From Mytilus galloprovincialis (lineage: Eukaryota): DNA of 64,000 nt. The DNA is taken from assembly GCF_965363235.1 (NCBI RefSeq), contig NC_134842.1, positions 34,040,757 to 34,104,756 on the forward strand, in the 5' to 3' direction. Below, one piece after another: positions 812 through 58,703 of this stretch (positions are counted from its first letter, which is position 1; the number at the start of each line of letters is the position of its first letter). A model generated the notes under the pieces. That model saw only the letters and a program-made list of their open reading frames with translations, did no database searches and had not been told where the DNA came from. Position numbers and translations under genes: made by a program.

Positions 812-3410
812 CTAAGAGGTGCATTTCAGCAAATTTTGAATTTATACTTTGACAACTTCTCTGAATGATCTATTGGTATTGATTTGTCAAACTATATGAG
901 AAGAAATGATTTCCACTTTTATTTGATAGAAATTTGTAAAAAAAAGTCACTTTTCAGCTGATATGCCCAAAAAGTAGCTTTTTCACTTTTTTCAATATTT
1001 TTGCAAAAGCAGTAATAATTTTTCCTTAATTTTTCTCTGACATTTTTTTTCTGATATTTATTTGTGTTTGTGGTATTTATTTCATGTGTTTTACTCATTT
1101 GTGAACTCTGAACACAAAGAAAAGTGGATAAAAGCATTAAAAGAGTGCAAAATGTGCTGTTTTAATAGTCTAGGTCTAACGGTCCGTACGAAGCAAGTGA
1201 AATATGAAGTTCTATGCACTTAAAAATTTTATTTCTTTAAACAGATTGCACTGAATCTATATCAAAAGCACTTATTACTGGTTGTTTAAACTTGTCTGTT
1301 TCACAGAATACCTTTATTTTCTTCTGTTGGATGGCTGGTGGTTAAAATTTTGGCATTTTAAGACTGAAATTTCATGCAGATTTTAAACAGTAAATTGAAA
1401 AAACTTTGCATCAGACCATACTGTCTACATATATAGTTAAAAGCAACAGTCTTGTAACATCCAGGCTTCATATTTGATCATATCTCAGCAAGGATTTGAG
1501 CAAAAAGAAGCATATTTCCATCTCCAATATCATTTATATGCAATTTAATATGGAAATATAGGGAACGGCCCAAATTGACAACTTGTTATTTTAAGCTTGA
1601 CATTGCTTAAGACCATGTAAAACTCATGTGTTATGCTCTTTGAAACTTATATTTACATCAAAAGAACATTTATGATATGTAAAATGTTTTGTTTTAACTT
1701 AACAACTTCAGAAAATTGTTGTAAGTGGAAAATATTACATTTCATATAAGGCCTCACTTCATTTGAAAACCTCTATTTTTTGGCATAGGCACATATAAAA
1801 TTAACTTTTGTCAAATTTTTATAAGTCTCATACATTAAGTATGCTATCATGTACTTTGAATAGCTAATATATTATCCATTGAGACATTAAAAAGTGCAAT
1901 TTGGTGTTTTTTGGGGATTTTTGAAGCCAAAATTTGAAAGTTGAAATTGTTCTATTTCAACGTCACAATTCAGCAACCAAAGTTGAGATATAAAAAATGC
2001 CACATTTTCTATAATATATATCATATGGCTTTGAAACTTTGTAAACTGACTCATAATACACTAAGCTTAACTCATGCCAAGTTTTATTGGAATTGGTCAA
2101 GTTTTTGGCCCCTAATAGGTGCATTTCAGCAAATTTTGAATTTATACTTTGACAACTTCTCTGAATGATCTATTGGTATTGATTTGTCAAACTATATGAG
2201 AAGAAATGATTTCCACTTTTATTTGATAGAAATTTGTAAAAAAAAGTCACTTTTCAGCTGATATGCCCAAAAAGTAGCTTTTTCACTTTTTTCAATATTT
2301 TTGCAAAAGCAGTATCCTTAATTTTTCTCTGACATTTTTTTTCTGATATTTATTTGTGTTTGTGGTATTTATTTCATGTGTTTTACTCATTTGTGAACTC
2401 TGAACACAAAGAAAAGTGGATAAAAGCATTAAAAGAGTGCAAAATGTGCTGTTTTAATAGTCTAGGTCTAACGGTCCGTACGAAGCAAGTGAAATATGAA
2501 GTTCTATGCACTTAAAAATTTTATTTCTTTAAACAGATTGCACTGAATCTATATCAAAAGCACTTATTACTGGTTGTTTAAACTTGTCTGTTTCACAGAA
2601 TACCTTTATTTTCTTCTGTTGGATGGCTGGTGGTTAAAATTTTGGCATTTTAAGACTGAAATTTCATGCAGATTTTAAACAGTAAATTGAAAAAACTTTG
2701 CATCAGACCATACTGTCTACATATATAGTTAAAAGCAACAGTCTTGTAACATCCAGGCTTCATATTTGATCATATCTCAGCAAGGATTTGAGCAAAAAGA
2801 AGCATATTTCCATCTCCAATATCATTTATATGCAATTTAATATGGAAATATAGGGAACGGCCCAAATTGACAACTTGTTATTTTAAGCTTGACATTGCTT
2901 AAGACCATGTAAAACTCATGTGTTATGCTCTTTGAAACTTATATTTACATCAAAAGAACATTTATGATATGTAAAATGTTTTGTTTTAACTTAACAACTT
3001 CAGAAAATTGTTGTAAGTGGAAAATATTACATTTCATATAAGGCCTCACTTCATTTGAAAACCTCTATTTTTTGGCATAGGCACATATAAAATTAACTTT
3101 TGTCAAATTTTTATAAGTCTCATACATTAAGTATGCTATCATGTACTTTGAATAGCTAATATATTATCCATTGAGACATTAAAAAGTGCAATTTGGTGTT
3201 TTTTGGGGATTTTTGAAGCCAAAATTTGAAAGTTGAAATTGTTCTATTTCAACGTCACAATTCAGCAACCAAAGTTGAGATATAAAAAATGCCACATTTT
3301 CTATAATATATATCATATGGCTTTGAAACTTTGTAAACTGACTCATAATACACTAAGCTTAACTCATGCCAAGTTTTATTGGAATTGGTCAAGTTTTTGG
3401 CCCCTAATAG

Positions 3411-3860
3411 GCCCAAGACCACAATTAATGACCCCGCTTTTCGTTGTTCACGAATATAGTTCCCTTTAATTATAGTGTATTTTTTCTTTATTTTTTTTTC
3501 TTTCCCTTTCTCATTCATTTCTTAGCTTTTCTGGGGTGGAAATGAAAGAAGAGAGCTGAAATAAACTTCTGGATGGTTTATTTTAACTGATTTTAATAAG
3601 GAAAGAGTGATTAGGCCAGGTGCAAAAAGGTTATATTTACACTTTTCGGAACATCTCTTGACTTGCCTATAGGGGTATGGATGTGTATTGGCCAAATTTG
3701 TATGATGTAAAGATGCAATTTTTCTGAAAATTGCATATATTTTTGGACTTGTACTGTACATTACACACACAAAAAATTAGACAAAAAGAATAGGCAATTT
3801 TTTTTTAATGCGACAAAACGTTATAAAGAAATGATAGAGGAATTAATTGTGGTCTCGGGC
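3411..3860. mobile_element. MITE copy (same element as 362-811)
   Basis: Identical sequence and flanks; long satellite unit. Confidence 0.8.
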
Positions 3861-20804: not shown

Positions 20805-23393
20805 CTAAGAGGTGCATTTCAGCAAATTTTGAATTTATACTTTGACAACTTCTCTGAATGATCTATTGGTATTGATTTGTCAAACTATATGAGAAGAAAT
20901 GATTTCCACTTTTATTTGATAGAAATTTGTAAAAAAAGTCACTTTTCAGCTGATATGCCCAAAAAGTAGCTTTTTCACTTTTTTCAATATTTTTGCAAAA
21001 GCAGTATCCTTAATTTTTCTCTGACATTTTTTTTCTGATATTTATTTGTGTTTGTGGTATTTATTTCATGTGTTTTACTCATTTGTGAACTCTGAACACA
21101 AAGAAAAGTGGATAAAAGCATTAAAAGAGTGCAAAATGTGCTGTTTTAATAGTCTAGGTCTAACGGTCCGTACGAAGCAAGTGAAATATGAAGTTCTATG
21201 CACTTAAAAATTTTATTTCTTTAAACAGATTGCACTGAATCTATATCAAAAGCACTTATTACTGGTTGTTTAAACTTGTCTGTTTCACAGAATACCTTTA
21301 TTTTCTTCTGTTGGATGGCTGGTGGTTAAAATTTTGGCATTTTAAGACTGAAATTTCATGCAGATTTTAAACAGTAAATTGAAAAAACTTTGCATCAGAC
21401 CATACTGTCTACATATATAGTTAAAAGCAACAGTCTTGTAACATCCAGGCTTCATATTTGATCATATCTCAGCAAGGATTTGAGCAAAAAGAAGCATATT
21501 TCCATCTCCAATATCATTTATATGCAATTTAATATGGAAATATAGGGAACGGCCCAAATTGACAACTTGTTATTTTAAGCTTGACATTGCTTAAGACCAT
21601 GTAAAACTCATGTGTTATGCTCTTTGAAACTTATATTTACATCAAAAGAACATTTATGATATGTAAAATGTTTTGTTTTAACTTAACAACTTCAGAAAAT
21701 TGTTGTAAGTGGAAAATATTACATTTCATATAAGGCCTCACTTCATTTGAAAACCTCTATTTTTTGGCATAGGCACATATAAAATTAACTTTTGTCAAAT
21801 TTTTATAAGTCTCATACATTAAGTATGCTATCATGTACTTTGAATAGCTAATATATTATCCATTGAGACATTAAAAAGTGCAATTTGGTGTTTTTTGGGG
21901 ATTTTTGAAGCCAAAATTTGAAAGTTGAAATTGTTCTATTTCAACGTCACAATTCAGCAACCAAAGTTGAGATATAAAAAATGCCACATTTTCTATAATA
22001 TATATCATATGGCTTTGAAACTTTGTAAACTGACTCATAATACACTAAGCTTAACTCATGCCAAGTTTTATTGGAATTGGTCAAGTTTTTGGCCCCTAAT
22101 AGGTGCATTTCAGCAAATTTTGAATTTATACTTTGACAACTTCTCTGAATGATCTATTGGTATTGATTTGTCAAACTATATGAGAAGAAATGATTTCCAC
22201 TTTTATTTGATAGAAATTTGTAAAAAAAGTCACTTTTCAGCTGATATGCCCAAAAAGTAGCTTTTTCACTTTTTTCAATATTTTTGCAAAAGCAGTATCC
22301 TTAACTTTTCTCTGACATTTTTTTTCTGATATTTATTTGTGTTTGTGGTATTTATTTCATGTGTTTTACTCATTTGTGAACTCTGAACACAAAGAAAAGT
22401 GGATAAAAGCATTAAAAGAGTGCAAAATGTGCTGTTTTAATAGTCTAGGTCTAACGGTCCGTACGAAGCAAGTGAAATATGAAGTTCTATGCACTTAAAA
22501 ATTTTATTTCTTTAAACAGATTGCACTGAATCTATATCAAAAGCACTTATTACTGGTTGTTTAAACTTGTCTGTTTCACAGAATACCTTTATTTTCTTCT
22601 GTTGGATGGCTGGTGGTTAAAATTTTGGCATTTTAAGACTGAAATTTCATGCAGATTTTAAACAGTAAATTGAAAAAACTTTGCATCAGACCATACTGTC
22701 TACATATATAGTTAAAAGCAACAGTCTTGTAACATCCAGGCTTCATATTTGATCATATCTCAGCAAGGATTTGAGCAAAAAGAAGCATATTTCCATCTCC
22801 AATATCATTTATATGCAATTTAATATGGAAATATAGGGAACGGCCCAAATTGACAACTTGTTATTTTAAGCTTGACATTGCTTAAGACCATGTAAAACTC
22901 ATGTGTTATGCTCTTTGAAACTTATATTTACATCAAAAGAACATTTATGATATGTAAAATGTTTTGTTTTAACTTAACAACTTCAGAAAATTGTTGTAAG
23001 TGGAAAATATTACATTTCATATAAGGCCTCACTTCATTTGAAAACCTCTATTTTTTGGCATAGGCACATATAAAATTAACTTTTGTCAAATTTTTATAAG
23101 TCTCATACATTAAGTATGCTATCATGTACTTTGAATAGCTAATATATTATCCATTGAGACATTAAAAAGTGCAATTTGGTGTTTTTTGGGGATTTTTGAA
23201 GCCAAAATTTGAAAGTTGAAATTGTTCTATTTCAACGTCACAATTCAGCAACCAAAGTTGAGATATAAAAAATGCCACATTTTCTATAATATATATCATA
23301 TGGCTTTGAAACTTTGTAAACTGACTCATAATACACTAAGCTTAACTCATGCCAAGTTTTATTGGAATTGGTCAAGTTTTTGGCCCCTAATAG

Positions 23394-23843: not shown

Positions 23844-26432
23844 CTAAGAGGTGCATTTCAGCAAATTTTGAATTTATACTTTGACAACTTCTCTGAATGA
23901 TCTATTGGTATTGATTTGTCAAACTATATGAGAAGAAATGATTTCCACTTTTATTTGATAGAAATTTGTAAAAAAAGTCACTTTTCAGCTGATATGCCCA
24001 AAAAGTAGCTTTTTCACTTTTTTCAATATTTTTGCAAAAGCAGTATCCTTAATTTTTCTCTGACATTTTTTTTCTGATATTTATTTGTGTTTGTGGTATT
24101 TATTTCATGTGTTTTACTCATTTGTGAACTCTGAACACAAAGAAAAGTGGATAAAAGCATTAAAAGAGTGCAAAATGTGCTGTTTTAATAGTCTAGGTCT
24201 AACGGTCCGTACGAAGCAAGTGAAATATGAAGTTCTATGCACTTAAAAATTTTATTTCTTTAAACAGATTGCACTGAATCTATATCAAAAGCACTTATTA
24301 CTGGTTGTTTAAACTTGTCTGTTTCACAGAATACCTTTATTTTCTTCTGTTGGATGGCTGGTGGTTAAAATTTTGGCATTTTAAGACTGAAATTTCATGC
24401 AGATTTTAAACAGTAAATTGAAAAAACTTTGCATCAGACCATACTGTCTACATATATAGTTAAAAGCAACAGTCTTGTAACATCCAGGCTTCATATTTGA
24501 TCATATCTCAGCAAGGATTTGAGCAAAAAGAAGCATATTTCCATCTCCAATATCATTTATATGCAATTTAATATGGAAATATAGGGAACGGCCCAAATTG
24601 ACAACTTGTTATTTTAAGCTTGACATTGCTTAAGACCATGTAAAACTCATGTGTTATGCTCTTTGAAACTTATATTTACATCAAAAGAACATTTATGATA
24701 TGTAAAATGTTTTGTTTTAACTTAACAACTTCAGAAAATTGTTGTAAGTGGAAAATATTACATTTCATATAAGGCCTCACTTCATTTGAAAACCTCTATT
24801 TTTTGGCATAGGCACATATAAAATTAACTTTTGTCAAATTTTTATAAGTCTCATACATTAAGTATGCTATCATGTACTTTGAATAGCTAATATATTATCC
24901 ATTGAGACATTAAAAAGTGCAATTTGGTGTTTTTTGGGGATTTTTGAAGCCAAAATTTGAAAGTTGAAATTGTTCTATTTCAACGTCACAATTCAGCAAC
25001 CAAAGTTGAGATATAAAAAATGCCACATTTTCTATAATATATATCATATGGCTTTGAAACTTTGTAAACTGACTCATAATACACTAAGCTTAACTCATGC
25101 CAAGTTTTATTGGAATTGGTCAAGTTTTTGGCCCCTAATAGGTGCATTTCAGCAAATTTTGAATTTATACTTTGACAACTTCTCTGAATGATCTATTGGT
25201 ATTGATTTGTCAAACTATATGAGAAGAAATGATTTCCACTTTTATTTGATAGAAATTTGTAAAAAAAGCCACTTTTCAGCTGATATGCCCAAAAAGTAGC
25301 TTTTTCACTTTTTTCAATATTTTTGCAAAAGCAGTATCCTTAATTTTTCTCTGACATTTTTTTTCTGATATTTATTTGTGTTTGTGGTATTTATTTCATG
25401 TGTTTTACTCATTTGTGAACTCTGAACACAAAGAAAAGTGGATAAAAGCATTAAAAGAGTGCAAAATGTGCTGTTTTAATAGTCTAGGTCTAACGGTCCG
25501 TACGAAGCAAGTGAAATATGAAGTTCTATGCACTTAAAAATTTTATTTCTTTAAACAGATTGCACTGAATCTATATCAAAAGCACTTATTACTGGTTGTT
25601 TAAACTTGTCTGTTTCACAGAATACCTTTATTTTCTTCTGTTGGATGGCTGGTGGTTAAAATTTTGGCATTTTAAGACTGAAATTTCATGCAGATTTTAA
25701 ACAGTAAATTGAAAAAACTTTGCATCAGACCATACTGTCTACATATATAGTTAAAAGCAACAGTCTTGTAACATCCAGGCTTCATATTTGATCATATCTC
25801 AGCAAGGATTTGAGCAAAAAGAAGCATATTTCCATCTCCAATATCATTTATATGCAATTTAATATGGAAATATAGGGAACGGCCCAAATTGACAACTTGT
25901 TATTTTAAGCTTGACATTGCTTAAGACCATGTAAAACTCATGTGTTATGCTCTTTGAAACTTATATTTACATCAAAAGAACATTTATGATATGTAAAATG
26001 TTTTGTTTTAACTTAACAACTTCAGAAAATTGTTGTAAGTGGAAAATATTACATTTCATATAAGGCCTCACTTCATTTGAAAACCTCTATTTTTTGGCAT
26101 AGGCACATATAAAATTAACTTTTGTCAAATTTTTATAAGTCTCATACATTAAGTATGCTATCATGTACTTTGAATAGCTAATATATTATCCATTGAGACA
26201 TTAAAAAGTGCAATTTGGTGTTTTTTGGGGATTTTTGAAGCCAAAATTTGAAAGTTGAAATTGTTCTATTTCAACGTCACAATTCAGCAACCAAAGTTGA
26301 GATATAAAAAATGCCACATTTTCTATAATATATATCATATGGCTTTGAAACTTTGTAAACTGACTCATAATACACTAAGCTTAACTCATGCCAAGTTTTA
26401 TTGGAATTGGTCAAGTTTTTGGCCCCTAATAG

Positions 26433-35600: not shown

Positions 35601-35764
35601 ATTTGCGCAATATTTATGAATATTTTCTCAATAGCTAAAACAATTTTTATATGCGTAATATTTATGAATAGAACAATAATTTTATGAGTTTGACCTATAA
35701 AAGAATTTCAGTGGTAATACCTGTGTCTATTAAGATCTACACTTGTACAGATTATTAATCATAC

Positions 35765-36107
35765 CTTGTGGAAATCATCAAACTGTACTTGAGCCACGGC
35801 TCCTCTAATCCGGGAGGCAATGGCCTTGCAGGCATCCCCAACAAAATCAGGTACACTGAAAATCTTAGATGCCTCAGTCTTATCTTCTTTATTTTTAATA
35901 TCAAAGTGCCAGTTGTATGACAGCTGAAGTGACAATCTAGCGTGATCGGCTGTTTCTACGGTGATAATGTCAGTACAGAAATCAGGTCCAAGAAGTAAAC
36001 ACAATGATTTGATAACATTTTGTTTCTTTGGTTTACCTCCAGAGAGACTAAGCTGTGTGAATTGTTCATCTGGACCCAACATAACTAATTCTGGACCAAA
36101 CACAACT
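35765..36107 (-). CDS. MVP: MVP exon E9: (R)[114 protein letters not shown]
   Basis: Near-identical to the MVP blocks [34 protein letters not shown] and [22 protein letters not shown]. Acceptor cctttatag|AGTTGTG; donor AAG|GTATGA. Confidence 0.9.
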
Positions 36108-40430: not shown

Positions 40431-40910
40431 CTTCTATAAACCAGATGCTCTGCAGGGCACAGCTTTATACGACCGCAGAGGTTGAACCCTGAACAGTTGG
40501 GGCAAGTATGGACACAACATTTAAGCTTCATACAGCTCTGAATTTAGATTGTGATTAAATAGTTGACACAACATAGGTTTCTGACACAGAATGAATGTGG
40601 TCTAAGAACTTAAACTTAAAAAGTTAAAAATTTTAAATTGGACATTTACCTATTATGATCCAATATCCAAAATCTTAATACATGGTTAGATTCAGCATAT
40701 CATAAAACCACAAGAATTCAATTTTAGATAAAAACAATTTATGTTCAATTTTAGACCCTTTAGACCTCAATGTGGACCAATTTGATAACTGGGCGCAAAT
40801 ATTAAAAATCTAAATACATGGTTAGTTTTAGCATATTGAAGAACCCCATATATTCAATTTTTGTTGAAATCAAACAAAGTTTAATTTTTGACCATTTGGA
40901 CCTTAAAGTC
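40431..40910 (+). mobile_element. Fragment of the composite tandem-array element family (see 53881-55848): conserved head (ccagatgctctgcagggcacagctttatacgaccgcagaggttgaacc...) plus ~108-bp units. In MVP intron 7.
   Basis: Head at 40431-40620 is more than 90% identical to the heads at 51862, 52977, 53881 and 56683. Followed by units of the ttggaccctttggacc...tttaatt type. Confidence 0.7.
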
Positions 40911-43147: not shown

Positions 43148-43498
43148 CTGCAAGATGTGAAAGAAAATATTTAATAACTTTAATATACATATTTCCACCA
43201 AACATATTTAAGAATCATCAATTAAAGGAGTACTGTATATTTTTTGTATGATTTACTCTTTATTCTATATATTTTTCTCCTCTCAATAACATGTATTATA
43301 GATAGTAACCTTTCTTAAGGTATCCTAGATTCTTTCCTAAACAAATATCAATTGCCATCTATTTTTTTCTAAATTCAAAATCTACCTAAATTTTGTGGTG
43401 ATACAATAATGTCCATGAATCATTTCACTGTAAATATTACTTTTTTTATTTTCATGTCTCCACAAAAATATTTTGTTGGTCTTATACAGCTTCTTTAC

Positions 43499-43850
43499 CT
43501 TATCTGTTAGAACATAGGCATTGACAACATCCACAACTTCTTCATAGGCTCCTGGGAGGTAAGCTCCAGTCTTCTTCACCAGCCATTCCTCACCAGTCAC
43601 CCTAGCAACACCTTGTCTATCAATAGTCTCCTTCCTGGCCCTCAGTCTAATGGCCTGGTTCGGTCTAATGACTGTGGCCCTGACAGTCTCCTCAATAACA
43701 ACCTCTTTCCTTGGGATATATGTTCCTGGTCCTTCAAATAGCCACTCATCCCCAGCTGTTCTCTTTTCTTCATCATCATCTTCAAAGTCTAGAATAGCTC
43801 TGAGCCGAAGAGCTGAGTTGGCTGCTACCACTTTTAAGGGAGTTACAACC
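43499..43850 (-). CDS. MVP: MVP exon E3: [117 protein letters not shown]
   Basis: Matches MVP [24 protein letters not shown]...[23 protein letters not shown]...RVTGEEWLV. Acceptor tttatag|GTTGTAAC; donor AAG|GTAAAG. The upper boundary is uncertain by 1 bp. Confidence 0.85.
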
Positions 43851-44609
43851 TATAAACAATAAGGGAGATAATAAAATTTGCTGCTAACACTTTTCACGTC
43901 ATAATAAGCTAGGCCTAATATTATGAATATCAAAAAATGAAAATTTAAATCATACATTGTTAACCTTGAAGATACTAGTTTAACTATCAAACAAGTCATT
44001 ATAATTTGGAGAACGACATTTAAAGGTGTGTGATATCAAGTATAACATCTAAGACATCTTACTTCCTTGTCACTCTACTGATCAATGTTGATTTAATAAC
44101 AAATCTTAAATGTTACCTGTACTGGATAGACAATGATAGAAACAAGACCTTGTAAACATATGATTACTTCCTTTTCAATTTCAATTTTACAAATTTTGTT
44201 TTCTTCATCCTGGATGATTTTCTCATGCATATGTAACGAAACCAAGACTATTTAAGTTTCAAAAAAGTCAATTTTCTCAGATCTCATTCAAACTATATCT
44301 GTGAATATTTCAAAAGCAGATGTTATCATCTGACTAGCAGATAAATGCTTACAAAATCCCTTGCAATGGAGCAATTATGCCAGATTTTGCGATTTTCATT
44401 GAATAAGATATACGAAATATTTTGGTGGTGATTGTTATGGTGGATTCAACCATTTTATCAATACATTTGCATGTTAACTTTTATATAGGAGGAATTTATT
44501 TGGACAATTTTGTTCTATCCAAGAAAATAAGCAAAAATTTACACCCTGCGAAAATAAGTGCCATACGGTAATACATGAAAACAAAGTGTAGCATAATGGT
44601 ACATCATAC

Positions 44610-44805
44610 TTGTTTTAGTATTTCCCCAGGGTACAGTGGGAAAGGATCCTGTGCCAATCTTATCTCCTGGTCAGCATGTACAAGTTTGGCCTGTCCACTT
44701 TCGTCAAAGACAACTTTACATTCTTTGTCTTTCAGTACTGGGTTTTCAATAATACAATAATGCCTTGGGGGGACAGTGATCATACGCTCTGGTCCATATA
44801 CAACT
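44610..44805 (-). CDS. MVP: MVP exon E2: (R)[65 protein letters not shown]
   Basis: Matches MVP ...[21 protein letters not shown]...[25 protein letters not shown]. Acceptor ttacag|AGTTGT; donor CAA|GTATGA. Confidence 0.85.
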
Positions 44806-45190
44806 CTGTAAGTAAAATTGCACATATGATACACGTTTTACAGTAGCTTTTCCCTTTGGATTACAATAATAGCTTAGAGAAATGTAAGAATAATAATTTA
44901 TTGTATCTATGATGAGTTTATTTAAACATGTAAAAAAAAACTTCAAATATAATTTTCATTAACTATAAACAATTTCTTCATTTTGTGATTAAAAATGGCA
45001 GAATAATATCAAGAAATGTTCATTGTATATAATGAACACTAGTAGTGATTACACATGGCCTTACATTAAAAAGAAAGGTCTATGGAACTTTTTCTAGTTC
45101 TGTATTTTCAAGGTTCCGATCAAACATATGTCCAAGATATGTAGGTGGTCCTTTTGTTACGTGGAAGCACTCTATAGAAAAAGTCCTTAC

Positions 45191-45330
45191 CTTTCATTGT
45201 CTTGTCTAATGAAGGTCTGTGGACCTATCTCTAGTCTTGTGATGTTAAGATTTTGGTCCAATACATGTAGATAGTAATATGGTGGTATTCTGTAGATAGG
45301 TTCATCTGCTGATCTCCTTGGTGCGGACAT
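45191..45330 (-). CDS. MVP: MVP exon E1 with start codon: [46 protein letters not shown](R)
   Basis: Matches the MVP N-terminus [35 protein letters not shown]. ATG on the minus strand at 45330; donor AG|GTAAGG at 45190. Confidence 0.85.
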
Positions 45331-48837: not shown

Positions 48838-48845
48838 GTACATGG
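48838..48845. repeat. Target-site duplication GTACATGG (left copy) of the hAT element
   Basis: Identical 8-mer at 51807-51814, directly abutting both terminal inverted repeats. Confidence 0.85.
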
Positions 48846-48854
48846 CAGACATGG

Positions 48855-49015
48855 GGTCAATTACATTTGAAAGTAATTAATTACATTCAATTACAATTAC
48901 AAAATCTTCAATTAAATTACACATTACATTTGACTTTTTTTACCAATGTAATTAATTACATTCCAATTACTTGGCAAATGTAATTAATTACTTCAATTAC
49001 ATTTGAAAGGAAATT
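48855..49015. promoter_or_regulatory. hAT sub-terminal repeat cluster (probable transposase-binding motifs AATTACA / TGTAATTAATTAC); a mirrored cluster lies at 51615-51800
   Basis: Multiple direct and inverted copies of caattaca / gtaattaattacat within ~170 bp of each terminus. Confidence 0.5.
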
Positions 49016-49142
49016 TAAGATAAAACATTGAAAACATGCATTTATTCTATGATATGTACATAAGTATTATACATTGCTCTATAGTTATAACAATTAGACA
49101 GTGTTCAACTAGTATATACATTTTTGTATTGTGTCATATAAC

Positions 49143-50571
49143 TTATTTAAGCATTTTCCCATTACATTTGACCATCATCAGCTTTTCAAATGTTCCATCA
49201 GCCAGTCTGCACCTTTCCGGCCTAAATGTTTTTCCAGCAGTGCTAAATAAGCGTTCAACTGGTGCAGATGTGGCTGGAATAGCTAAATATTGCACTGCTA
49301 ACTTAGCTAGACGTGGTAAACGTTGACAGTTACTATGCCAATACAAAAGAGGGTCTTTTGACATATCAATACAATTATCTGACAAGTAATCATCCATTTC
49401 TGAACTTACAGAAATCCCTGAAGGGTTTCTTTTTCTTTCCACTGATGGGGCTGGCATGAAACTGAAAAGATCATCATTTTTTGCTCGCTTACATGGGGGA
49501 GAATTTTGATCACAAGGGGGCTCAGATGATGTAGGGACTTGACTAAGTTTGTCCTTAACAACAGCTAAACACTGATCAATCTGTTCAGTTTCACACCATC
49601 TGGTCTTAAATCTTGGGTCTAAAAAGCTAGCAAGAATATATGCTTCATCCTCTACAAACTGAAACAATCTTTCTTCAACAGAAGATTTCAATGATTTTAT
49701 CATTTTACAATTATAGTCAACTGATATAAGTTTTAACTGGTGTTTTAATCCAAGTGTTACAGGAATTGGCAAGCTAGCAGTTACAGTTTTTTCACCTTGG
49801 ACAAGGACTGTAGCTTTGTCAAAAGGTTCAAGTATAGTACATAATTCAGAAAGCAGTTTTCTCTCATAGGATGAAAGCTTAGTTTTACAGTCTATTTTGT
49901 CCAATTCTAATTCTGGCACATTCAAAACTGAGCAAATCATATGCAGTTGTGAATTCCATCTTGTAGCATTAGCAGCTTGCAATCTTTTATAATCTTCAAG
50001 GATTTCTGAAGCAATAATAGATTTCCTAACAAAACTGACAATATTTGATGCCTTTGTAATAACAGTTTTAAGGTGGGGTGAACAATCTTTCAGGCCATCC
50101 TTAACAACCAATTGTAAGGTGTGTGCAAAGCATCTTGAATGTTTGGGTAAGCAGTCGGATAAATGTAGCCCAGTCCAAAATAAAGTGGCCTGTGATTCCC
50201 AAAAATCCTCTCATTTGTCTACTAGACCAGAGATCAATGGTTAAACACACACTTTCAGCTCTTTTAAGAGTATTTACAAGGTTATTTTTTATTTCAACCG
50301 ATTTTTCATGTAGAAGTTTCGAAGATAAATGCTTTCTGCTAGGCACTTGATACTTAGTGTCAGCTTTTTCCATCAAGTTTTTAAATTCTTCACTTTCGAC
50401 AATAGAGAGTGGTAAAAGATCCCCAGCTATGAACATTATAAGAGCATTTGTCATTTCTAACTGTTTTGGATCAGACGGTGAATATTTTACACTTTTTTTT
50501 ATGCATTGTGTCAATGTTGGTTGAATTTCTTTATTCTCAGAATGCAGAATGTACAAATCTCTGTGTTTTCT
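49143..50571 (-). pseudogene. hAT transposase core plus hATC dimerisation domain, with a frame disruption at about 50100-50115. The segment between the HFI..W block and the CFAHTLNL block, which normally carries the second catalytic D, appears to be missing.
   Basis: ORF 50101-50691 (frame A) ends ...GITGHFILDWATFIRLLTQTFKMLCTHLTIGC*. The +1 frame continues ...RCFAHTLQLVVKDGLK... through ...SVERLFSTAG...MMVKCN (ORF 49143-50111). Acceptor ttttcag|AGAAAACAC at about 50572. Confidence 0.6.
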
Positions 50572-50951
50572 CTGAAAATTACAAAAGGCCTTATTTAATA
50601 TCTTGAAAATATTAAATTGTTTTAATTTACCTATTGAAATTTTACATTTATTTAAATTTATTTGATTGTAAATGATACAAAAAAAGAGCACTATTTTTTA
50701 TTTTTTGAAATGATTTTCATTTTTATCCCAGCTTATTCAAATTATTTATCTTAAATAAGTGATTTAGAAATCTGACTTCTTAAAACAAAAATAAACTTTA
50801 GTTTTAATCACAACTAATTAATTTAATAAACAAAATATTTTCCAAATTTAAATGTAAGCTATTAGAGGATATAAGATAAATGAAATCTGATTAGAAATGA
50901 AAAAGAAGCATTATGAATTTATTAATTTTTAAAATTCTTATATAGTATTAC

Positions 50952-51128
50952 CTTCATATGTGTAACAAAGTTGGATGTAACTTTATAACTTCCACTAATG
51001 AGGGTGCCACAATGCATACATTTTCCTTTGAAAGTATTTCCATTTTGGAAGTCATCAGGAACAGTAAAATGTTCCAGTACACTCTTGGAGCTCATTTTTA
51101 AATCTGATAAAATGTTTTCTTTCAACAT
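50952..51128 (-). CDS. hAT transposase exon 1 encoding a BED-type zinc finger (FKGKCMHCGTLISGSYKVTSNFVTHMK); donor AAG|GTAATA
   Basis: C-x2-C ... H-x4-H is completed by RKH in the next exon. In-frame ATGs at 51128 and 51095. Intron of ~380 bp to the acceptor at about 50572. Confidence 0.6.
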
Positions 51129-51806
51129 TCATATATATAGTGAACAAATTTTGCAAGTGATATTTTGTCATATGCATTATCCCTTCAAGAATTTAAACAT
51201 GTACCTATAGGCCCTAGGGGTATATTTATCTCTCTCTAATTAGCCTTATATCTGTTTAACATAACTGTTATAAAAACAGTCATTATATAGTTTGTAATAA
51301 AACAAATAGCCAGAGGTTATATTTATTGGTTATTTAAGTCCTTGAATAAAGTTAATTATGTTAAATCAATGTCTTAAAATATCTATCTAAATCTACTAAT
51401 TAAGGTCGAGACAGTGACTTCCTAGTGGTTTCTTTTAAAATTATGGCATGTGTCTACATTTTTTTTATCATTCAATACAAAATGAAGAATCTACCATGGT
51501 TGTGCTAATACAGAAAGTATACTGTGAAGGCTTTTCTTTGTCAGCTTACAACATTTGTTAAGATTATTGCTTTTAATAATTTTTTGAGAAAACACAAGAT
51601 TTAATCTTTTGATCCAAAATTTCAAATGTAATTGACTTGTAATTGAAAAGTAATTGTCAATTACAGGCAATTTTGGCTATGTAATTAATTACATTCAATT
51701 ACATGTAATTGAAAAAATGCTCAATTACACATTACATTCAATTACATGATAAATTGTAATTAATTACAGTCAATTACAATTACATATTTCAATTACCCCA
51801 TGTCTG

Positions 51807-51814
51807 GTACATGG
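51807..51814. repeat. Target-site duplication GTACATGG (right copy) of the hAT element
   Basis: See 48838-48845. Confidence 0.85.
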
Positions 51815-51861
51815 TGTAGCTATGACCGGGGAACTCACATTTAAAACAGGAATAACTACAT

Positions 51862-52755
51862 TTAATAACCAGATGCTCCACAGGGCGCAGCTTTATACGA
51901 CCGCAGAGGTTGAACCCTCACGGAACGGTTGGGGCAAGTATGGACACAACATTCAAGCTGGATTCAGCTCTAAATTTGGATTGTGATTAAATAGTTGACA
52001 CAGCATAGGTTTCTGACACAGAATGAATGTGGTCTAATGAACTTAAAATATTTTTTTTGCCTTTGAGCAATTCACTATGCTGTTGAATATTAATCCTCTC
52101 AAAAAAATGTTTGAAGAAATTTTCTTTTTATTTATGACATCTGGAATGAGAAAAATTTAACCCCCCCTTTTTTTCACATCCCCCTTTCCCTTTTTCCAAA
52201 ACTGATCTCAATTCAAATTTCTAATGGAGTTTGCAACAATAACTACTCATTTAAATACATCATAAAATATTAAAATGTAAAATAAAGTGCTTGTTATCAC
52301 TGAATGGTAAAGATTGTTTTAATATATCAGTTGGTAGTAAAAGTGAATATACATTGTATATTGTATAAAACAATGATTTAAGTTGATTCAACTACTATTC
52401 TGGACAAAGAAAGATAACTCCAATTGAAAATTTCTTGCTATTGCAAAATATTGTGCAATTAGATATTTCTTGCTATTGCACAATACTGTGCAATTGAAAA
52501 TATTTGCTATTGCACCATACTGTGCAATTGAAGATTTCTTGCTATTGCGCAATACTGTGCAATTAAAAATTTCTTGCTATTGCACAATACTGTGCAATTG
52601 AAGATTTCTTGCTATTGCTGAATACTGTGCAATTGAAAATTTCTTGCTATTGCACAATACTTAATATAATAATTTTGGATCCTGATTTGTACCAACTTGA
52701 AAACTGGGCCCATAATAAAAAATCAAGTACATGTTTAGATTCAGCATATCAAACT
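51862..52755 (+). mobile_element. Partial copy of the composite element: head + body + 35-bp array (52423-52660, 7 units) + start of the tail
   Basis: Head ccagatgctccacagggcgcagctttatacgaccgcagaggttgaaccc... is more than 90% identical to the other heads. Confidence 0.7.
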
Positions 52756-52976
52756 AGAGGCTCTCAAGAGCCTGTGTCGCTCACCTTGGTCTATGTGCAT
52801 ATTAAACAATGGACACAGATAAATTCATGACAAAATTGTGTTTTGGTGATCATGATGTGTTTGTAGATCTTACTTTACTGAACATTCTTCTTGCTACAGT
52901 TATCTCTATCTATAATGAACTTGGCCCAGTAATTACAGTGGAAAATATATTCTACAAAATTTACAAAAATTTACAA

Positions 52977-53512
52977 CCAGATGCTCCGCAGGGCGTAGCT
53001 TTATACGACCGCAGAGGTTGAACCCTGAACGGTTGGGGCAAGTATGGACACAACATTCAAGCTGGATTCAGCTCTAAATTTGGATTGTGATTAAATAGTT
53101 GACATAGCATAGGTTTCTGACACAGAATGAATGTGTTCTAATGAACTTAAAATTTTTGTTTTCTCTTAGAGCAATTCACTATGCTGTTGAATATTAATCC
53201 TCTCAAAAAAATGTTTGAAGAAATTTTCTTTTTTATTTATGAAATTTCAAATGAGAAAAATTGAACCCAATTTTTTTAATCACATCCCCCTTTCCCTTAT
53301 TCCAAAACTAATCTCAATTAAAATTTCTAATGGAGTTTGCAACAATAACTACTCATTTAAATACATCATAAAATATTAAGATGTAAAAAAACTGCTTGTT
53401 ATCACTGAATGGTAAAGATTATTTTAATTTATCAGTTGGTAGTAAAAGTGAATATACATTGTATATTGTATATAACAAAGATTTAAGTTGATTCTGGACA
53501 AAGAAAGATATA
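52977..53512 (+). mobile_element. Partial copy (head + body) of the composite element
   Basis: Same head and body sequence, truncated before the arrays. Confidence 0.7.
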
Positions 53513-53880
53513 CGACCGCAGAGGTTGAACCCCAGTTGGGGCAAGTATGGACACAACATTTAAGCTGGATTCAGCTCTAAATTTGGATTGTGATAAAATA
53601 GTTGACACAGCATAGGTTTCTGACAGAGAATGAATGTGGTCTAATGAACTTAAAATATTTTTTTGGCCTTTGAGCAACTCACTATGCTGTTGAATATTAA
53701 TCCTCTCAAAAAAATGTTTGAAGAAATTTTCTTATTATTTATGAAATCTGAAATGAGAAAAATTTAACCCCCCCCCTCATTTTTTTTTACATCCCCCTTT
53801 CCCTTTTTCCAAAACTGATCTCAATTCAAATTCCTAATGGAGTTTGCAACAATAACTACTCATTTAAATACATCATAAAA
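53513..53880 (+). mobile_element. Partial copy (head + body, truncated at both ends), abutting the next copy
   Basis: Begins atacgaccgcagaggttgaacccc. Confidence 0.65.
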
Positions 53881-55848
53881 GGCGTAGCTTTATACGACCG
53901 CAGAGGTTGAACCCTGAACGGTTGGGGCAAGTATGGACACAACATTCAAGCTGGATTCAGCTCTAAATTTGGATTGTGATTAAATAGTTGACATAGCATA
54001 GGTTTCTGACACAGAATGAATGTGTTCTAATGAACTTAAAATTTTTGTTTTCTCTTAGAGCAATTCACTATGCTGTTGAATATTAATCCTCTCAAAAAAA
54101 TGTTTGAAGAAATTTTCTTTTTTATTTATGAAATTTCAAATGAGAAAAATTGAACCCAATTTTTTTAATCACATCCCCCTTTCCCTTATTCCAAAACTAA
54201 TCTCAATTAAAATTTCTAATGGAGTTTGCAACAATAACTACTCATTTAAAAACATCATAAAATATTAAGATGTAAAAAAACTGCTTGTTATCACTGAATG
54301 GTAAAGATTATTTTAATTTATCAGTTGGTAGTAAAAAGTGAATATACATTGTATATTGTATATAACAAAGATTTAAGTTGATTCTGGACAAAGAAAGATA
54401 ACTCCAATTAAAAAAAAATCTTGCTATTGCACAATATTTTGCAATTAGATATTTCTTGCTTACTATTCTGGACAAAGAAAGATAACTCTAATTAAAAAAA
54501 AATTTGCTATTTCACAATATTGTGCAATTAGATATTTCTTGCCATTGCGCAATACTGTGCAATTGAAAAGACTTGCTATTGCACAATACTTAATATAATA
54601 ATTTTAGATCCTGATTTGGACCAACTTGAAAACTGGGCCCATAATAAAAAATCTAAGTACATTTTTGGATTCAGCATATCAAAGAACCCCAAGATTTCAA
54701 TTTTTGTTAAAATCAGACTAAGTTTAATTTTGGACCCTTTGGACTTTAGTGTAGACCAATTTGAAAACAGGACCAAAAATGAAGAATCTACATACACAGT
54801 TAGATTTGGTATATCAAAGAACCCCATTTATTCAATTTTTGATGAAATCAAACAAAGTTTAATTTTGGACCCCGATTTGGACCAACTTGAAAACTGGGCC
54901 AATAATCAAGAATCTAAGTACATTTTTAGATTCAGCATATCAAAGAACTTAACTGATTCATTTTTTGTCAAAATCAAACTAAGTTTAATTTTGGACCCTT
55001 TGGACCTTAATGTAGACCAATTTGAAAACGGGACCAAAAGTTAAGAATCTACATACACAGTCATGACAGTTAGATTCGGCATATCAAAGAACCCCAATTA
55101 TTCAATTTTGATGAAATCAAACAAAGTTTAATTTTGGACCCTTTGGGCCCCTTATTCTGTTGGGACCAAACCTCCCAAAATCAATACCAACCTTCCTTTT
55201 ATGGTCATAAACCTTGTGTTTAAATTTCATAGATTTCTATTTACTTATACTAACGTTATGGTGCGAAAACCAAGAAAAATGCTTATTTGGGTCCCTTTTT
55301 GGCCCCTAATTCCTAAACTGTTGGGACATTAACTCCCAAAATCAATACCAACCTTCCTTTTGTAGTCATTAACATTGTGTTTAAATTTCATTGATTTCTA
55401 TTTACTTAAACTAAAGTTATTGTGCGAAAACCAAGAATAATGCTTATTTGGGCCCTTTTTTGGCCCCTAATTCCTAAACTGTTGAAACCAAAACTCCCAA
55501 AATCAATCCCAACCGTTCTTTTGTGGTCATAAACCTTGTGTCAAAATTTCATAGATTTCTATTAACTTAAACTAAAGTTATAGTGCGAAAACCAAGAAAA
55601 TGCTTATTTGGGCCCTTTTTGGCCCCTAATTCCTAAAATGATGGGACCAAAACTGCCAAAATCAATACCAACCTTCCTTTTGTGGTCATAAACCTTGTGT
55701 TAAAATTTCATAGATTTCCATTCACTTTTACTAAAGTTAGAGTGCGAAAACTAAAAGTATTCGGACGACGACGACGACGCCAACGTGATAGCAATATACG
55801 ACGAAAAATTTTTCAAATTTTGCGGTTGTATAAAAACTTATGAAAATT
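53881..55848 (+). mobile_element. Full-length composite non-autonomous element (~1.97 kb): head with sub-terminal inverted repeat TTTATACGACCGCAG; unique body; degenerate 35-bp array (~54405-54590); ~108-bp array (54600-55140); ~160-bp array (55140-55750); (GAC)n; 3' terminus ...TTGCGGTTGTATAAAAACT. Possibly Helentron/HINE-like.
   Basis: The 3' inverted repeat (reverse complement agtttttatacaaccgcaa) pairs with the 5' tttatacgaccgcag. The internal arrays were read directly. The same architecture occurs at 56673-58703. Confidence 0.6.
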
Positions 55849-56672
55849 GTTAAAAAATGACTATAAAGGACAATAACTCCTTAAGGGGTAACTTCACAAT
55901 TTTGGTCATGTTGACTTATTTGTAGATCTTACTTTGCTGAACATTATTGCTGTTTACAGTTTATCTCTATCTGTTATAATATTCAAGATAATAACCAAAA
56001 ACTGCAAAATTTCCTTAAAATTACTAATTCTGGGGCAGCAACCCAACAACAGGGTGTCTGTTTTGTCTGAAATTTCAGGGCAGATAGATCTTTACCTGAT
56101 AAACAATTTATCTCTTGTCAGATATGCTCTAAATACTTTGGTTTCAGAGATATAAGCCAAAATCTACATTTTACCCCTATGTTCTATTTTTAGCCATGGC
56201 GGCCATTTTGGTTGGTTGGCAGGGTCACGCCACACATTTTTTAAACTAGATACCCCAATGATGATTTTGGCCAAGTTTGGATTAATTTGGCCCAGTAGTT
56301 ATAGAGAAGAATATCTTTTGTAAAAGATAACTAAGATTTACGAAAAATGGTTAAAAATTGACTATAAAGGGCAATAACTCCTAAAGGGGTCAACTGACCA
56401 TTTTGGTCATGTTGACCTTTTTGTAAATCTTACTTTGCTGAACATTATTGCAGTTTACAGTTTATCTCTATCTATAATAATATTCAAGATAATAACCAAA
56501 AACAGTAAAATTTCCTTAAAATTGTCAATTTAGGGGCAGCAACCCAATAACTGGTTGTCCGATTCTTCTGAAAATTTCAGGGCAGATAGATCTTGACTTG
56601 ATAAACAAATTTACCCAATGTCAGATTTGCTCTAAATGCTTTGGTTTTTAAGTTATAAGCCAACCAAAAATC
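55849..56672 (+). repeat. Two tandem ~330-bp core units (55849-56180 and 56340-56672) separated by a ~160-bp insert (ccatggcggccattttggttggttggcagggtcacgcc...). A partial core also precedes the head at 52756-52975.
   Basis: tatgaaaattgttaaaaaatgactataaaggacaataactcc...cagggcagatagatc...ataagccaa repeated at ~85% identity. Confidence 0.6.
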
Positions 56673-58703
56673 TCCGCAGGGCGCAGCTATATACGACCGC
56701 AGAGGTTGAACCCCAGTTGGGGCAAGTATGGACACAACATTTAAGCTGGATTCAGCTCTAAATTTGGATTGTGATAAAATAGTTGACACAGCATAGGTTT
56801 CTGACACAGAATGAATGTGGTCTAATGAACTTAAAATATTTTTTTGGCCTTTGAGCAACTCACTATGCTGTTGAATATTAATCCTCTCAAAAAAATGTTT
56901 GAAGAAATTTTCTTTTTATTTATGAAATCTGAAATGAGAAAAATTTAACCCTCCCCCCCCCCATTTTTTTTTTACATCCCCCTTTCCCTTTTTCCAAAAC
57001 TGATCTCAATTCAAATTTCTAATGGAGTTTGCAAAAATAACTACTCATTTAAATACATCATAAAATATTAAAATGTAACAAAAGGTGCTTGTTATCACTG
57101 AATGGTAAAGATTGTTTTAATTTATCAGTTGGTAGTAAAAGTGAATATACATTGTATATTGTATAAAACAATGAATTTAGTTGACTCAACTACTATTCTG
57201 GACAAAGAAAGATAACTCCAATCAATTGAAAATTTCTTGCTATTGCACAATATTGTGCAATTAGATATTTCTGGCTATTGCGCAATACTGTGCAATTGAA
57301 AATATTTGCTATTGCACAATACTGTGTAATTGAAGATTTCTTGCTATTGCGCAATACTGAGCAATTGAAAATTTCTTGCTATTGCACAAAACTGTGCAAT
57401 TGAAGATTTCTTGCTATTGCTGAATACTGTGCAATTGAAAATTTCTTGCTATTGCACAATACTTAATATAGTAATTTTGGATCCTGATTTGAACCAACTT
57501 GAAAACTGGGCGCATAAACAAAAATCTAAGTACATGTTTAGATTCAGCATATCAAAAAAGCCCAAAAATTCAATTTTTGTTAAAATCAAATTTAGTTTAA
57601 TTTTGGACCCTTTGGACTTTAATGTAGACCAATTTGAAAACGGGACCAAAAATTAAGAATCTACATACACAGTTAGATTTGGCATATCAAAGAACCCCAA
57701 TTATTCAATTTTTGATGAAATCAAACAAAGTTTAATTTTGGACCCCGATTTGGACCAACTTGAAAACTGGGCCAATAATCAAAAATCTAAGTACATTTTT
57801 TAGATTCAACATATCAAAGAACCCCAAGGATTCAATTTTTGTTAAAATCAAACTAAGTTTAATTTTGGACCCTTTGGACCTTAATGTAGACCAATTTGAA
57901 AACGGGACCAATAATTAAGAATCTACAGACACAGTTAGATTTAGCATATCAAAGAACCCCAATTATTCAATTTTTGATGAAATCAAACAAAGTTCAATTT
58001 TGGACCCTTTGGGCCCCTTATTCCTAAACTGTTGGGATCAAAACTCCCAAAATCAAACCCAACCTTCCTTTTATGGTCATAAACCTTGTGTTTAAATTTC
58101 ATAGATTTCTATTTACTTATACTTAAGTTATGGTGCGAAAAACAAGAATAATGCTTATTTGGGCCCCTTTTTGGCCCCTAATTCCTAAACTGTTGGGACC
58201 TCAACTCCCAAAATCAATCCCAACCTTCCTTTTGTGGTCATAAACCTTGTGTTTAAATTTCACTGATTTCTATTTACTTATACTAAACATTCTAAAGTTA
58301 TTGTGCGAAAACCAAGAATAATGCTTATTTGGGCCCTTTTTTGGCCCCTAATTCCTAAACTGTTGGAACCAAAGCTCCCAAAATCAGACCCAACCTTCCT
58401 TTTGTGGTCATAAACCTTGTGTCAAAATTTCATAGATTTCTATTCACTTGAACTAAAGTTATAGTGCGAAAACAAAGAAAATGCTTATTTGGGCCCTTTT
58501 TGGCCCCTAATTCCTAAAATGTTGGGACCAAAACTCCCAAAATCAATCCCAACCTTCCTTTTGTAGTCATAAACCTTGTGTCAAAATTTCATCGATTTCT
58601 ATTCACTTTACTAAAGTTAGAGTGCGAAAACTAAAAGTATTCGGACGACGACGACGTGATACCAATATACAACCAAAAAATTTTCAATTAGATTTATACG
58701 GTC
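56673..58703 (+). mobile_element. Second full-length composite element (~2.03 kb): head; 35-bp array (57224-57463, 7 units); ~108-bp array (57470-58010); ~160-bp array (58010-58625); 3' terminus ...ATTTATACGGTCGTATAAAAACT
   Basis: Same order of modules as 53881-55848. The 3' sub-terminal inverted repeat matches the 5' TTTATACGACCG at 12 of 12 positions. Confidence 0.6.

Follow-up and report, generated by a model that had tools for sequence, protein, structure and literature searches.

A single hAT element lies on the minus strand of the 64,000-nt stretch of Mytilus galloprovincialis DNA analysed here (contig NC_134842.1; hereafter the window), where it occupies positions 48846-51806 (2,961 bp). 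We interpret it, with a probability of roughly 0.93, as a non-autonomous, internally deleted member of a young family of Mytilus hAT DNA transposons. The copy in the window is 99.83% identical to full-length copies, from which it differs mainly by a 257-bp deletion. The mechanism of the element holds nothing unexpected: this is an ordinary cut-and-paste hAT transposon.

Element ends, target site and subterminal repeats

The features that delimit the element are the following:

48838..48845, unstranded: left copy of the target-site duplication (TSD) GTACATGG, next to the terminal inverted repeat (TIR)
48846..48857, plus strand: TIR CAGACATGGGGT, the element 3' end in transposase orientation
48859..49001, unstranded: subterminal cluster on the 3' side of the element, with AATTACA (9 sites), CAATTAC and the palindromic GTAATTAATTAC
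51627..51784, unstranded: subterminal cluster on the 5' side of the element, with 13 AATTACA sites
51795..51806, minus strand: TIR CAGACATGGGGT, the element 5' end in transposase orientation
51807..51814, unstranded: right copy of the TSD GTACATGG

The hallmarks of hAT elements are an 8-bp TSD and short TIRs of about 10-25 bp that usually start with CAG or TAG. Here, the TSD is perfect (8/8), has only two copies in the window and directly adjoins both TIRs; by chance alone, such an 8/8 direct repeat would border both TIRs exactly with a probability of about 4^-8. The TIRs are perfect over 12 bp, with two matches against 0.15 expected in 64 kb when up to one mismatch was allowed, and their pairing can be extended to 27 nt at 78% identity. 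An earlier, sequence-only reading had proposed the perfect 8-bp TSD and TIRs beginning with CAG, and both were recovered. It had also considered these TIRs unrelated to those of a satellite MITE, which holds for the 12-mer, confined to the element ends within the window. MITEs themselves are short (less than about 800 bp) and without coding remnant, and this class was ruled out for the window copy by its 2,961 bp, or 92% of the parent element. The 12-mer is also present at the 3' end of the related copies L001, L002, L003, L005, L006, and L007. The 3'-end TIR of L004 is interrupted by a 1-bp insertion, and the other related copies keep the 12-mer at every end present. A literature search with the 12-mer returned chance matches only, and no paper was found on this particular transposon family.

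Of the AATTACA motifs in the element, 9 lie within the leftmost 200 bp, 13 within the rightmost 200 bp, and one in the 2,561-bp interior. These clusters had been described as mirrored: they do exist at both ends, but the motif lies mostly on the plus strand at each of them (7+/2- on the left and 8+/5- on the right) and is not simply mirrored. A 29-nt direct repeat with 97% identity is also located near both ends (48873-48901 and 51756-51784). By analogy with other hAT elements, the subterminal repeats are presumed to be the binding sites of the BED finger of the transposase. The gene for the major vault protein is encoded on the strand of the element, and its first coding exon lies about 3.5 kb downstream of it. 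A scan for bacterial promoters and terminators yielded counts at or below the shuffled expectation, which has no bearing on a eukaryote.

The internal deletion and the coding remnants

Relative to the full-length element of 3,217 bp (L001 310-3526), the window copy presents a single gap of 257 bp (reference 1641-1897, i.e., L001 1950-2206), with 99.7% identity on one side and 99.9% on the other. Five substitutions and one 1-bp indel were counted over 2,960 aligned bp, all of them non-coding; three of the substitutions are located upstream of the ATG. Because the TSD is perfect and the copy is nearly identical to a full-length one, we judge the insertion to be recent, as had been suggested before.

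The deletion junction falls at 50166/50167, outside any homopolymer, and carries a 2-bp microhomology (TA). The deletion costs residues 195-279 (85 aa) plus 2 nt and results in a frameshift; strands beta3-beta4, helix alpha1, and the second catalytic Asp (D237) are lost with it. L001, L002, and L004 retain the missing segment with 100% conservation, and the ORF of the full-length copies L001 and L006 runs unbroken through the deletion site. An intron at the frameshift site was rejected: full-length copies read straight through this position, and blastn and tblastn searches found the 257 bp nowhere in the window. The sequence-only reading had favored an internal deletion over an intron, and the alignment to paralogues agrees, with its one gap. 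That reading had, however, placed a +1 frameshift at about 50105, a position that merely corresponds to the overlap of two ORFs and the end of the shifted frame. It had also estimated that 50-60 residues were missing, including the second catalytic D; the loss of this residue stands and the size does not, since 85 residues are gone. The complete transposase ORF of an autonomous element, catalytic triad included, is no longer present in the window copy.

The deletion may have originated through gap repair after excision: the anatomy of the junction suggests that synthesis-dependent copying would have been aborted and the ends rejoined at the microhomology. Ds derives from Ac by such interrupted double-strand gap repair. 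Alternatively, the gap could be an assembly or consensus artefact concealing a full-length, autonomous locus. Mytilus assemblies are highly heterozygous and rich in repeats, the odd duplicated flank of L002 may reflect an assembly problem, and L001, L004, and L005 have no matching TSDs. The junction in the window is nevertheless clean, with its microhomology and without a homopolymer. Moreover, many independent assemblies present analogous but different deletions, and we take deletion derivatives to be real in this family for this reason. We consider an artefact at this locus very improbable.

What is left of the transposase gene in this deletion derivative is as follows:

50952..51128, minus strand: exon 1, residues 1-59, with the start ATG at 51128 and the BED finger CMHC...H
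50572..50951, minus strand: intron of 380 nt, AAG/GTAATA ... TTTTCAG/AG, which splits the BED zinc finger
50167..50571, minus strand: 5' part of exon 2, residues 60-194, with the second His pair of the BED finger and the first catalytic Asp D172 (CLTIDLW)
50166..50167, minus strand: deletion junction with TA microhomology, from the alignment to full-length copies
50101..50103, minus strand: premature stop codon after 21 out-of-frame codons (TFIRLLTQTFKMLCTHLTIGC and stop)
49143..50165, minus strand: 3' part of exon 2, residues ~281-620, out of frame, with C292/H295 (CxxH), W350, and the hATC domain with E584

Both the BED zinc finger and the hATC domain that had been noted were recovered by Pfam: Dimer_Tnp_hAT (PF05699) with an E-value of 1.3e-18 on the ORF at 49143-50111(-), and zf-BED with an E-value of 1e-4 on the ORF at 50922-51128(-), improving to 1e-6 once the 380-nt intron was spliced. 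This intron is of the GT..AG type, its splicing rebuilds the C-x2-C...H-x4-H of the BED finger, and the gene models P0001, P0123, and P0121 share this splice; the intron was absent from the sequence-only reading. The 3' part of exon 2 ends with a stop codon at 49143-49145, and its translation is 100% identical to P0002, a 'ZBED4-like' Mytilus homologue. Among the motifs previously listed, CLTIDLWSS, GHFILDW, and RCFAHTLQLVV are all present in the window translations, and the C-terminal SVERLFSTAG should be read SAPVERLFSTAG.

The product of the window copy is predicted from its reading frames to be a 215-aa BED-finger fragment at most. The premature stop is located in the last exon and would not trigger NMD. 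Such a fragment might be expressed and, by occupying the subterminal repeats, repress the family in a dominant-negative manner, as KP does for the P element. In its favor, the window copy keeps an intact start codon, exon 1, intron, and BED finger, identical to those of active-looking copies. Yet nothing sets the window copy apart from many other deleted copies, and we regard this role as improbable.

The locus is annotated in RefSeq as XP_076109057.1 (P0001, 'zinc finger BED domain-containing protein 4-like'), a model that maps to the window copy at 100% identity as three exons. This match, together with the frequent domestication of ZBED genes (PMC3606216), would be expected of a domesticated 'ZBED4-like' host gene whose intron bridges the apparent frameshift. 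However, the second intron of P0001, of about 103 nt (about 50108-50006), lies within sequence that is coding in every full-length copy; it takes out CxxH, and D237 is missing as well. The locus also possesses perfect TIRs and a perfect TSD but no intact ORF, and multi-copy elements located elsewhere, in unrelated surroundings, match it at 99.8% identity. We give almost no credence to a host gene. Judging from the full-length coding sequence, the intron of about 103 nt was apparently invented by the annotation. More generally, at least a dozen RefSeq/GenBank Mytilus models are copies of this transposon or fusions to one, which is a matter of annotation hygiene; these mislabelled models carry names such as 'ZBED4-like', 'ZBED1-like', 'UFL1', and 'beta-galactosidase'.

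The transposon family and its mobility

The full-length element possesses 12-bp TIRs, generates 8-bp TSDs, and has two exons encoding a 620-aa transposase. Its layout comprises the BED finger, an RNase-H-like DDE core (D172, D237, E584) interrupted by an all-alpha insertion domain, CxxH and RW motifs, and the hAT C-terminal domain. In the AlphaFold model of the full-length protein (pLDDT 79.7), an acidic disordered linker of about 40 residues follows the second Asp. Across 29 homologues, D173, C228, and H231 (P0002 numbering) are invariant. P0002 contains the missing 85 aa and shows 100% identity to the window copy wherever the two overlap.

Intact elements were found in L006 and L001. L006, from M. 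edulis, is 3,217 bp long with a TSD of 7/8, and its intact 620-aa ORF was confirmed in the DNA. P0123 (XP_076093186.1) is a 620-aa RefSeq gene model of M. galloprovincialis that lies on another chromosome than P0001 in the same annotation. L001, a metagenome-assembly contig, carries an intact element with a continuous ORF and no matching TSD in its flanks, a mismatch that we attribute to the short contig assembled from a multi-copy repeat. L007 is full length with a TSD of 8/8 (TTGGCAAC) and a broken ORF; L002, L004, and L007 are all broken by a frameshift, a premature stop, or a nested insertion. The TSD is also 7/8 in L003, and none was found for L004 and L005. Multiple copies are 98-99.9% identical at unrelated loci, and identities of 99.1-99.9% are seen among Mytilus copies of at least two species. 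We regard the hAT family as very young.

Internal deletions that differ from the one in the window are present in at least 11 further Mytilus copies or gene models:

Copies: L003 and L005 (the deletion junction of L005 carries filler DNA)
Gene models: P0122, P0124, P0125, P0127, P0128, P0129, P0130, P0131, and P0133

These sister deletions fit the description of the window copy as a Ds-like derivative: its ends and subterminal regions are those of full-length copies, its first 301 bp and last 168 bp matching the 3,217-bp reference base for base, and an internal segment is gone. Because the ends and the subterminal repeats are unchanged and Mytilus genomes contain intact genes for the 620-aa transposase, the window copy can probably still be excised and reinserted in trans.

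We searched for traces of such movement. The 30-nt deletion junction (TTTTGGACTGGGCTACATTTATCCGACTGC) and the reconstructed empty site (ATACACCT-GTACATGG-TGTAGCTA) had no exact match in JGI metagenome contigs, where mussel DNA is scarce. No paralogous empty site spanning the insertion point was found in the window or in the retrieved loci. The repeat to the right of the element begins 45-50 bp past the TSD. The 40-aa junction peptide returned no candidates from the protein collection, and P0001, which contains this peptide, was also missed, probably through a word-index limit.

It is possible, and we suggest it tentatively, that the family is transpositionally active today in the hybridising M. 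edulis / M. galloprovincialis / M. trossulus complex and that the window copy is segregating and trans-mobilisable. If true, this would provide a naturally active mollusc hAT transposon, with one mobile insertion located 3.5 kb upstream of the gene for the major vault protein, and the 620-aa transposase with its 12-bp TIR ends could serve bivalve transgenesis or insertional marking. A contrasting view is that the copy is an immobile fossil: its ends are intact, but the transposase is silenced (e.g., by piRNA or methylation) or the deleted part is needed in cis, and the element decays in place. Direct signs of mobility were indeed not found, with no second locus bearing the same junction in collections that hardly cover mussels, and many copies are broken (L002, L004, L007). 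On the other hand, near-identical copies persist in at least two species, as do the intact ORF of L006 and the 620-aa model P0123, and near-identity with intact ORFs is what very recent activity of a family typically leaves behind. The cis requirements of other hAT elements (Ac/Ds, hobo, Hermes) reside in the terminal 100-250 bp, and these regions are unchanged here. We therefore regard a fossil as rather unlikely. Being very young, with its transposase intact and with many independent deletion derivatives, the family lends itself to studies of gap repair and insertion polymorphism in mussels, which are known for extreme presence/absence variation.

Classification and comparison with known systems

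Target sites follow the consensus nTnnnnAn in the Ac family and nnnTAnnn in Buster. The four TSDs that we recovered, in element orientation (CCATGTAC, TTGGCAAC, GATAACGT, and GCCACCAT), fit the Ac consensus only loosely, with A at position 7 in three of four and T at position 2 in one of four; none has the central TA of Buster. The nearest named relatives are ZBED1/ZBED4-like proteins, and the vertebrate members are 40-45% identical. These relatives belong to the Ac family (PMC3606216). Based on PMC3606216 and on automated protein names, our family is most likely placed in the Ac clade, which is also the source of vertebrate ZBED1 and ZBED4.

The closest parallel to the deletion derivatives is Ac/Ds of maize, which shares the 8-bp TSD, short TIRs starting with CAG, clustered short subterminal repeats, and non-autonomous copies that have lost varied internal segments of the autonomous element but kept its ends. 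In contrast, the Mytilus element is from an animal (a bivalve) and its transposase, with an N-terminal BED finger, is closest to ZBED1/ZBED4-like proteins; trans-mobilisation has been demonstrated for Ds, whereas we infer it for the Mytilus copy. The deletion derivatives of hobo, the P element, and mariner likewise have individual breakpoints, and the Mytilus junctions show microhomology (TA) or filler (L005); abortive gap repair is inferred for Mytilus from the anatomy of the junctions only. Vertebrate ZBED1 and ZBED4 have the same domain order as the Mytilus transposase, and automated annotation names the Mytilus copies after them. They are, however, single-copy syntenic host genes without TIRs or TSDs, whereas the Mytilus element is multi-copy with intact ends and its window copy is a pseudogene.

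Finally, Hermes of Musca domestica (PDB 2BW3, 4D1Q, 6DWW, 8EDG) is the sole relative in the PDB by sequence (E-value 1.5e-17) and the sole significant fold relative of the Mytilus transposase model (Foldseek E-value 7e-19, TM 0.63-0.72). The two differ in that identity is about 20%, the Mytilus protein has the acidic linker of about 40 residues, and the window copy is without the second Asp. The D-D-E, CxxH, and RW motifs of Hermes nonetheless align with D172, D237, E584, C292/H295, and W350 of the Mytilus transposase, E584 lying in SAPVERLFS where Hermes has SAASERTFS.

Element bounds and coding remnants

The positions of the target-site duplication (TSD), terminal inverted repeats (TIRs) and other repeats delimit a hAT element of 2,961 bp at 48846-51806, with its gene on the minus strand. 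The TSD, GTACATGG, has two exact copies in the 64-kb window (48838-48845 and 51807-51814). The TIR, CAGACATGGGGT, has its sole two matches in the window directly inside them, at 48846-48857 (+) and 51795-51806 (-) (one mismatch allowed; 0.15 expected), and an imperfect inverted repeat extends beyond it to 27 nt (78%). A direct repeat of 29 nt has one copy near each end (48873-48901 and 51756-51784; 97%), and the palindrome GTAATTAATTAC is likewise found at both. There are nine copies of AATTACA in the first 200 bp and 13 in the last 200 bp, against a single one in the remaining 2,561 bp. These clusters had been described as mirrored in the sequence-only reading; they are present at both ends, but the + strand predominates at each and they are not plain mirror images.

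Pfam matches were obtained for Dimer_Tnp_hAT in the ORF at 49143-50111(-) (E 1.3e-18) and for zf-BED in the ORF at 50922-51128(-) (E 1e-4 before splicing), which, with the perfect TSD and the TIRs, bears out the initial identification of a hAT element with intact ends. Exon 1, read on the minus strand, ends in THMK, followed by GTAATA, at 50952, and the acceptor TTTTCAG lies ahead of RKHRDLY at 50571. Removal of this 380-nt intron (50572-50951), which splits the BED finger and must be added to its earlier description, restores the C-x2-C...H-x4-H finger (zf-BED ~1e-6, profile positions 15-44 of 44); public gene models use the identical splice. The CLTIDLWSS...GHFILDWA frame continues through 21 unrelated codons to a stop codon (50101-50103), and RCFAHTLQLVVKDGL with all downstream sequence to the stop at 49143-49145 lies in a different frame. 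The window copy cannot encode an active enzyme, and its maximal predicted product is a 215-aa BED-finger fragment.

The element lies ~3.5 kb upstream of the first coding exon of a major vault protein gene, in the same orientation, and an unrelated repeat family starts ~45-50 bp past the right-hand TSD copy.

Features surrounding the element
35759-36103, minus: major vault protein exon, MVP shoulder and Vault_3 domains
43493-43846, minus: major vault protein exon, Vault repeats
44607-44807 and 45190-45327, minus: major vault protein exons, N-terminal
51860-52414, 52969-53494, 53509-53880, 53881-54384, 56672-57212 and 40439-40614; also locus L004, 4399-6370: copies of a ~550-bp repeat module
52421-52661, 54619-55751 and 57223-58631: tandem arrays after the modules (units of 35 bp, ~135 bp and ~161-170 bp)
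1-28640: higher-order tandem array (~28.6 kb)

The ~550-bp module, which opens with CCAGATGCTCC(A/G)CAGGGCG and shows 91-94% identity among copies, is presumably the "satellite MITE" named earlier. One copy is inserted in the intron of the hAT element at L004, so that the module too has moved recently. In the array at 1-28640, blocks of the first 3 kb repeat each ~3.04 kb (99.2-100% identity) and contain sub-periods of ~1.3 and ~1.75 kb. TRF did not detect the array, as its period is above 500, and there is no AATTACA within it.

The internal deletion and the transposase core

A protein search gave Mytilus proteins labelled "zinc finger BED domain-containing protein 4-like". Among these, a 556-aa homologue (P0002) is 100% identical to both coding pieces of the window copy and has 85 additional residues, MKSVMICCKRFKGRHTAESIRSEYEEVVTSFEIGFKIAAIVSDNASNMVKAFSIPGFDDFKVDHESSDEEIDDVDKEIEDDQSDD, between GHFILDWA and LHLSDCLPKHSRCFAH. 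Its metagenome-assembly contig (L001) carries a complete 3,217-bp element at 310-3526 with the same TIRs, our reference. The window copy aligns to it at 99.7% (1,644 bp) and 99.9% (1,324 bp) on either side of a single 257-bp gap, whose junction joins GGGCTA to CATTT at 50166/50167 with 2 bp of TA microhomology. Because 257 nt equal 85 codons plus 2 nt, the frame is shifted. The missing segment is 100% conserved across L001, L002 and L004, and neither blastn nor tblastn detected it anywhere in the window. Over its terminal 301 bp and 168 bp the window copy is identical to the reference; apart from the gap, it differs by five substitutions and one 1-bp indel, none of them in coding sequence (51505, 51408, 51161, 50890, 50685 and 49014). 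Paralogue alignment thus upholds the proposed Ds-like internal deletion. The frameshift had been placed at about 50105, near the stop rather than the junction, and the loss put at 50-60 residues, where comparison with P0002 gives 85.

The full-length spliced ORF encodes 620 aa, and its only PDB sequence match is the Hermes transposase (E 1.5e-17). TIDLW, VSDNASN, RCFAH, TRWNS and PVERLFS pair with the Hermes D, D, CxxH, RW and E motifs, giving D172, D237, C292/H295, W350 and E584. The second catalytic D, already suspected to be absent, is D237, within the deleted segment. An AlphaFold model of P0002 (29 homologues in the input; mean pLDDT 79.7, pTM 0.79) has a beta-beta-beta-alpha-beta core, as expected, together with an acidic linker that is disordered, a large insertion made up entirely of helices, and helices at the C-terminus, and Hermes was its sole significant Foldseek match in the PDB (E 7e-19 to 4e-15, TM 0.58-0.72). 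Judged from this model, the deletion (P0002 residues 131-215) removes strand beta3, helix alpha1, strand beta4, D237, the following helix and the greater part of the acidic linker. A separate M. galloprovincialis protein, P0125 (602 aa), lacks 18 aa in frame, all of them from the disordered acidic linker that follows D237, and may retain function, which suggests that the linker is dispensable.

Gene models and other copies of the family

The M. galloprovincialis RefSeq model P0001 (XP_076109057.1) contains the out-of-frame peptide ATFIRLLTQTFKMLCTHLTI, specific to the window copy, and maps to the window at 100% identity (51128-50952, 50571-50110 and 50006-49146); the window is therefore almost certainly its locus. 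P0001 is without D237 and the CxxH motif. Its mapping, from which the coordinates derive, requires a ~103-nt "intron" (~50108-50006) that is uninterrupted coding sequence in all full-length copies. This intron appears to be invented, and the model an artefact of frame rescue in a transposon pseudogene. Elsewhere, intronic hAT copies have been merged into host gene models of UFL1 (P0015; L002 22090-25400) and a beta-galactosidase (P0074; L005), both chimeric annotations.

Further loci were reached via gene models and then compared with the 3,217-bp reference.

Other copies of the element
L006, M. edulis: complete, 99.94% identical, 620-aa ORF intact; TSD GATAACGT / GATAACGA (7/8)
L007, M. edulis: full length, broken ORF; TSD TTGGCAAC (8/8)
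L003, M. edulis: internal deletion of ~760 bp; TSD 7/8
L005 (CAJPWZ010001697.1), M. edulis: deletion of ~1.2 kb, its junction containing filler bases; no TSD
L004, M. galloprovincialis: full length with nested ~2 kb insertion; no TSD
L002 (CAJPWZ010002417.1), M. edulis, within the UFL1 gene model: first ~140 bp missing

Pairwise identity among copies of both species is 97.5-99.9%. The 90% cluster of P0002 includes a RefSeq protein of 620 aa from M. galloprovincialis (P0123, XP_076093186.1; 2 aa different) and numerous short models of M. edulis, M. galloprovincialis and M. trossulus, which individually lose their match to the full-length protein at residue 75, 242, 257, 260, 285, 298, 333 or 360; P0125 and P0127 have smaller, in-frame deletions. 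The breakpoint of the window copy (residue 194) is shared by none of the cluster models compared.

At L004 (3290/8480) and L005 (13972/15990) the ends are complete and a matching 8-bp TSD is absent, possibly because copies recombined, flanks were deleted or the assemblies are chimeric; the 3' TIR of L004 has a 1-bp insertion. At L002, a ~105-bp duplicate of DNA beyond the 3' TIR takes the place of the first ~140 bp (22090-22200 vs 25293-25400; 39 bp identical, the rest similar). This arrangement may have come from abnormal transposition or repair, or from an assembly error that merged filled and empty haplotypes.

Mobility and origin of the deletion

The window copy has hAT anatomy and has lost a catalytic segment, and intact partner elements exist. 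This copy could be an immobile relic; with its termini unchanged, we consider it somewhat more probable (roughly 0.6) that it is still mobile in trans.

hAT elements are among the most frequent bivalve DNA transposons: 133 autonomous consensus sequences have been curated (PMC10294476), hAT/Tip100 is abundant in M. galloprovincialis (PMC4792442), and ZBED1 and ZBED4 are Ac family members (PMC3606216). Our literature search, with Repbase and Dfam outside its scope, found no paper on this particular Mytilus family, and the element is at most a new representative of a thoroughly known kind.

hAT transposases bind subterminal repeats, as in Ac/Ds, hobo and Hermes; cleavage proceeds through a hairpin on flanking DNA, and integration has an 8-bp stagger. 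When repair of an excision gap off a sister or homologous copy is abandoned part-way, joining of the ends via microhomology or filler yields a deletion derivative. The window deletion may have originated in this way, with which the TA microhomology, the filler at L005 and the many individual breakpoints are consistent.
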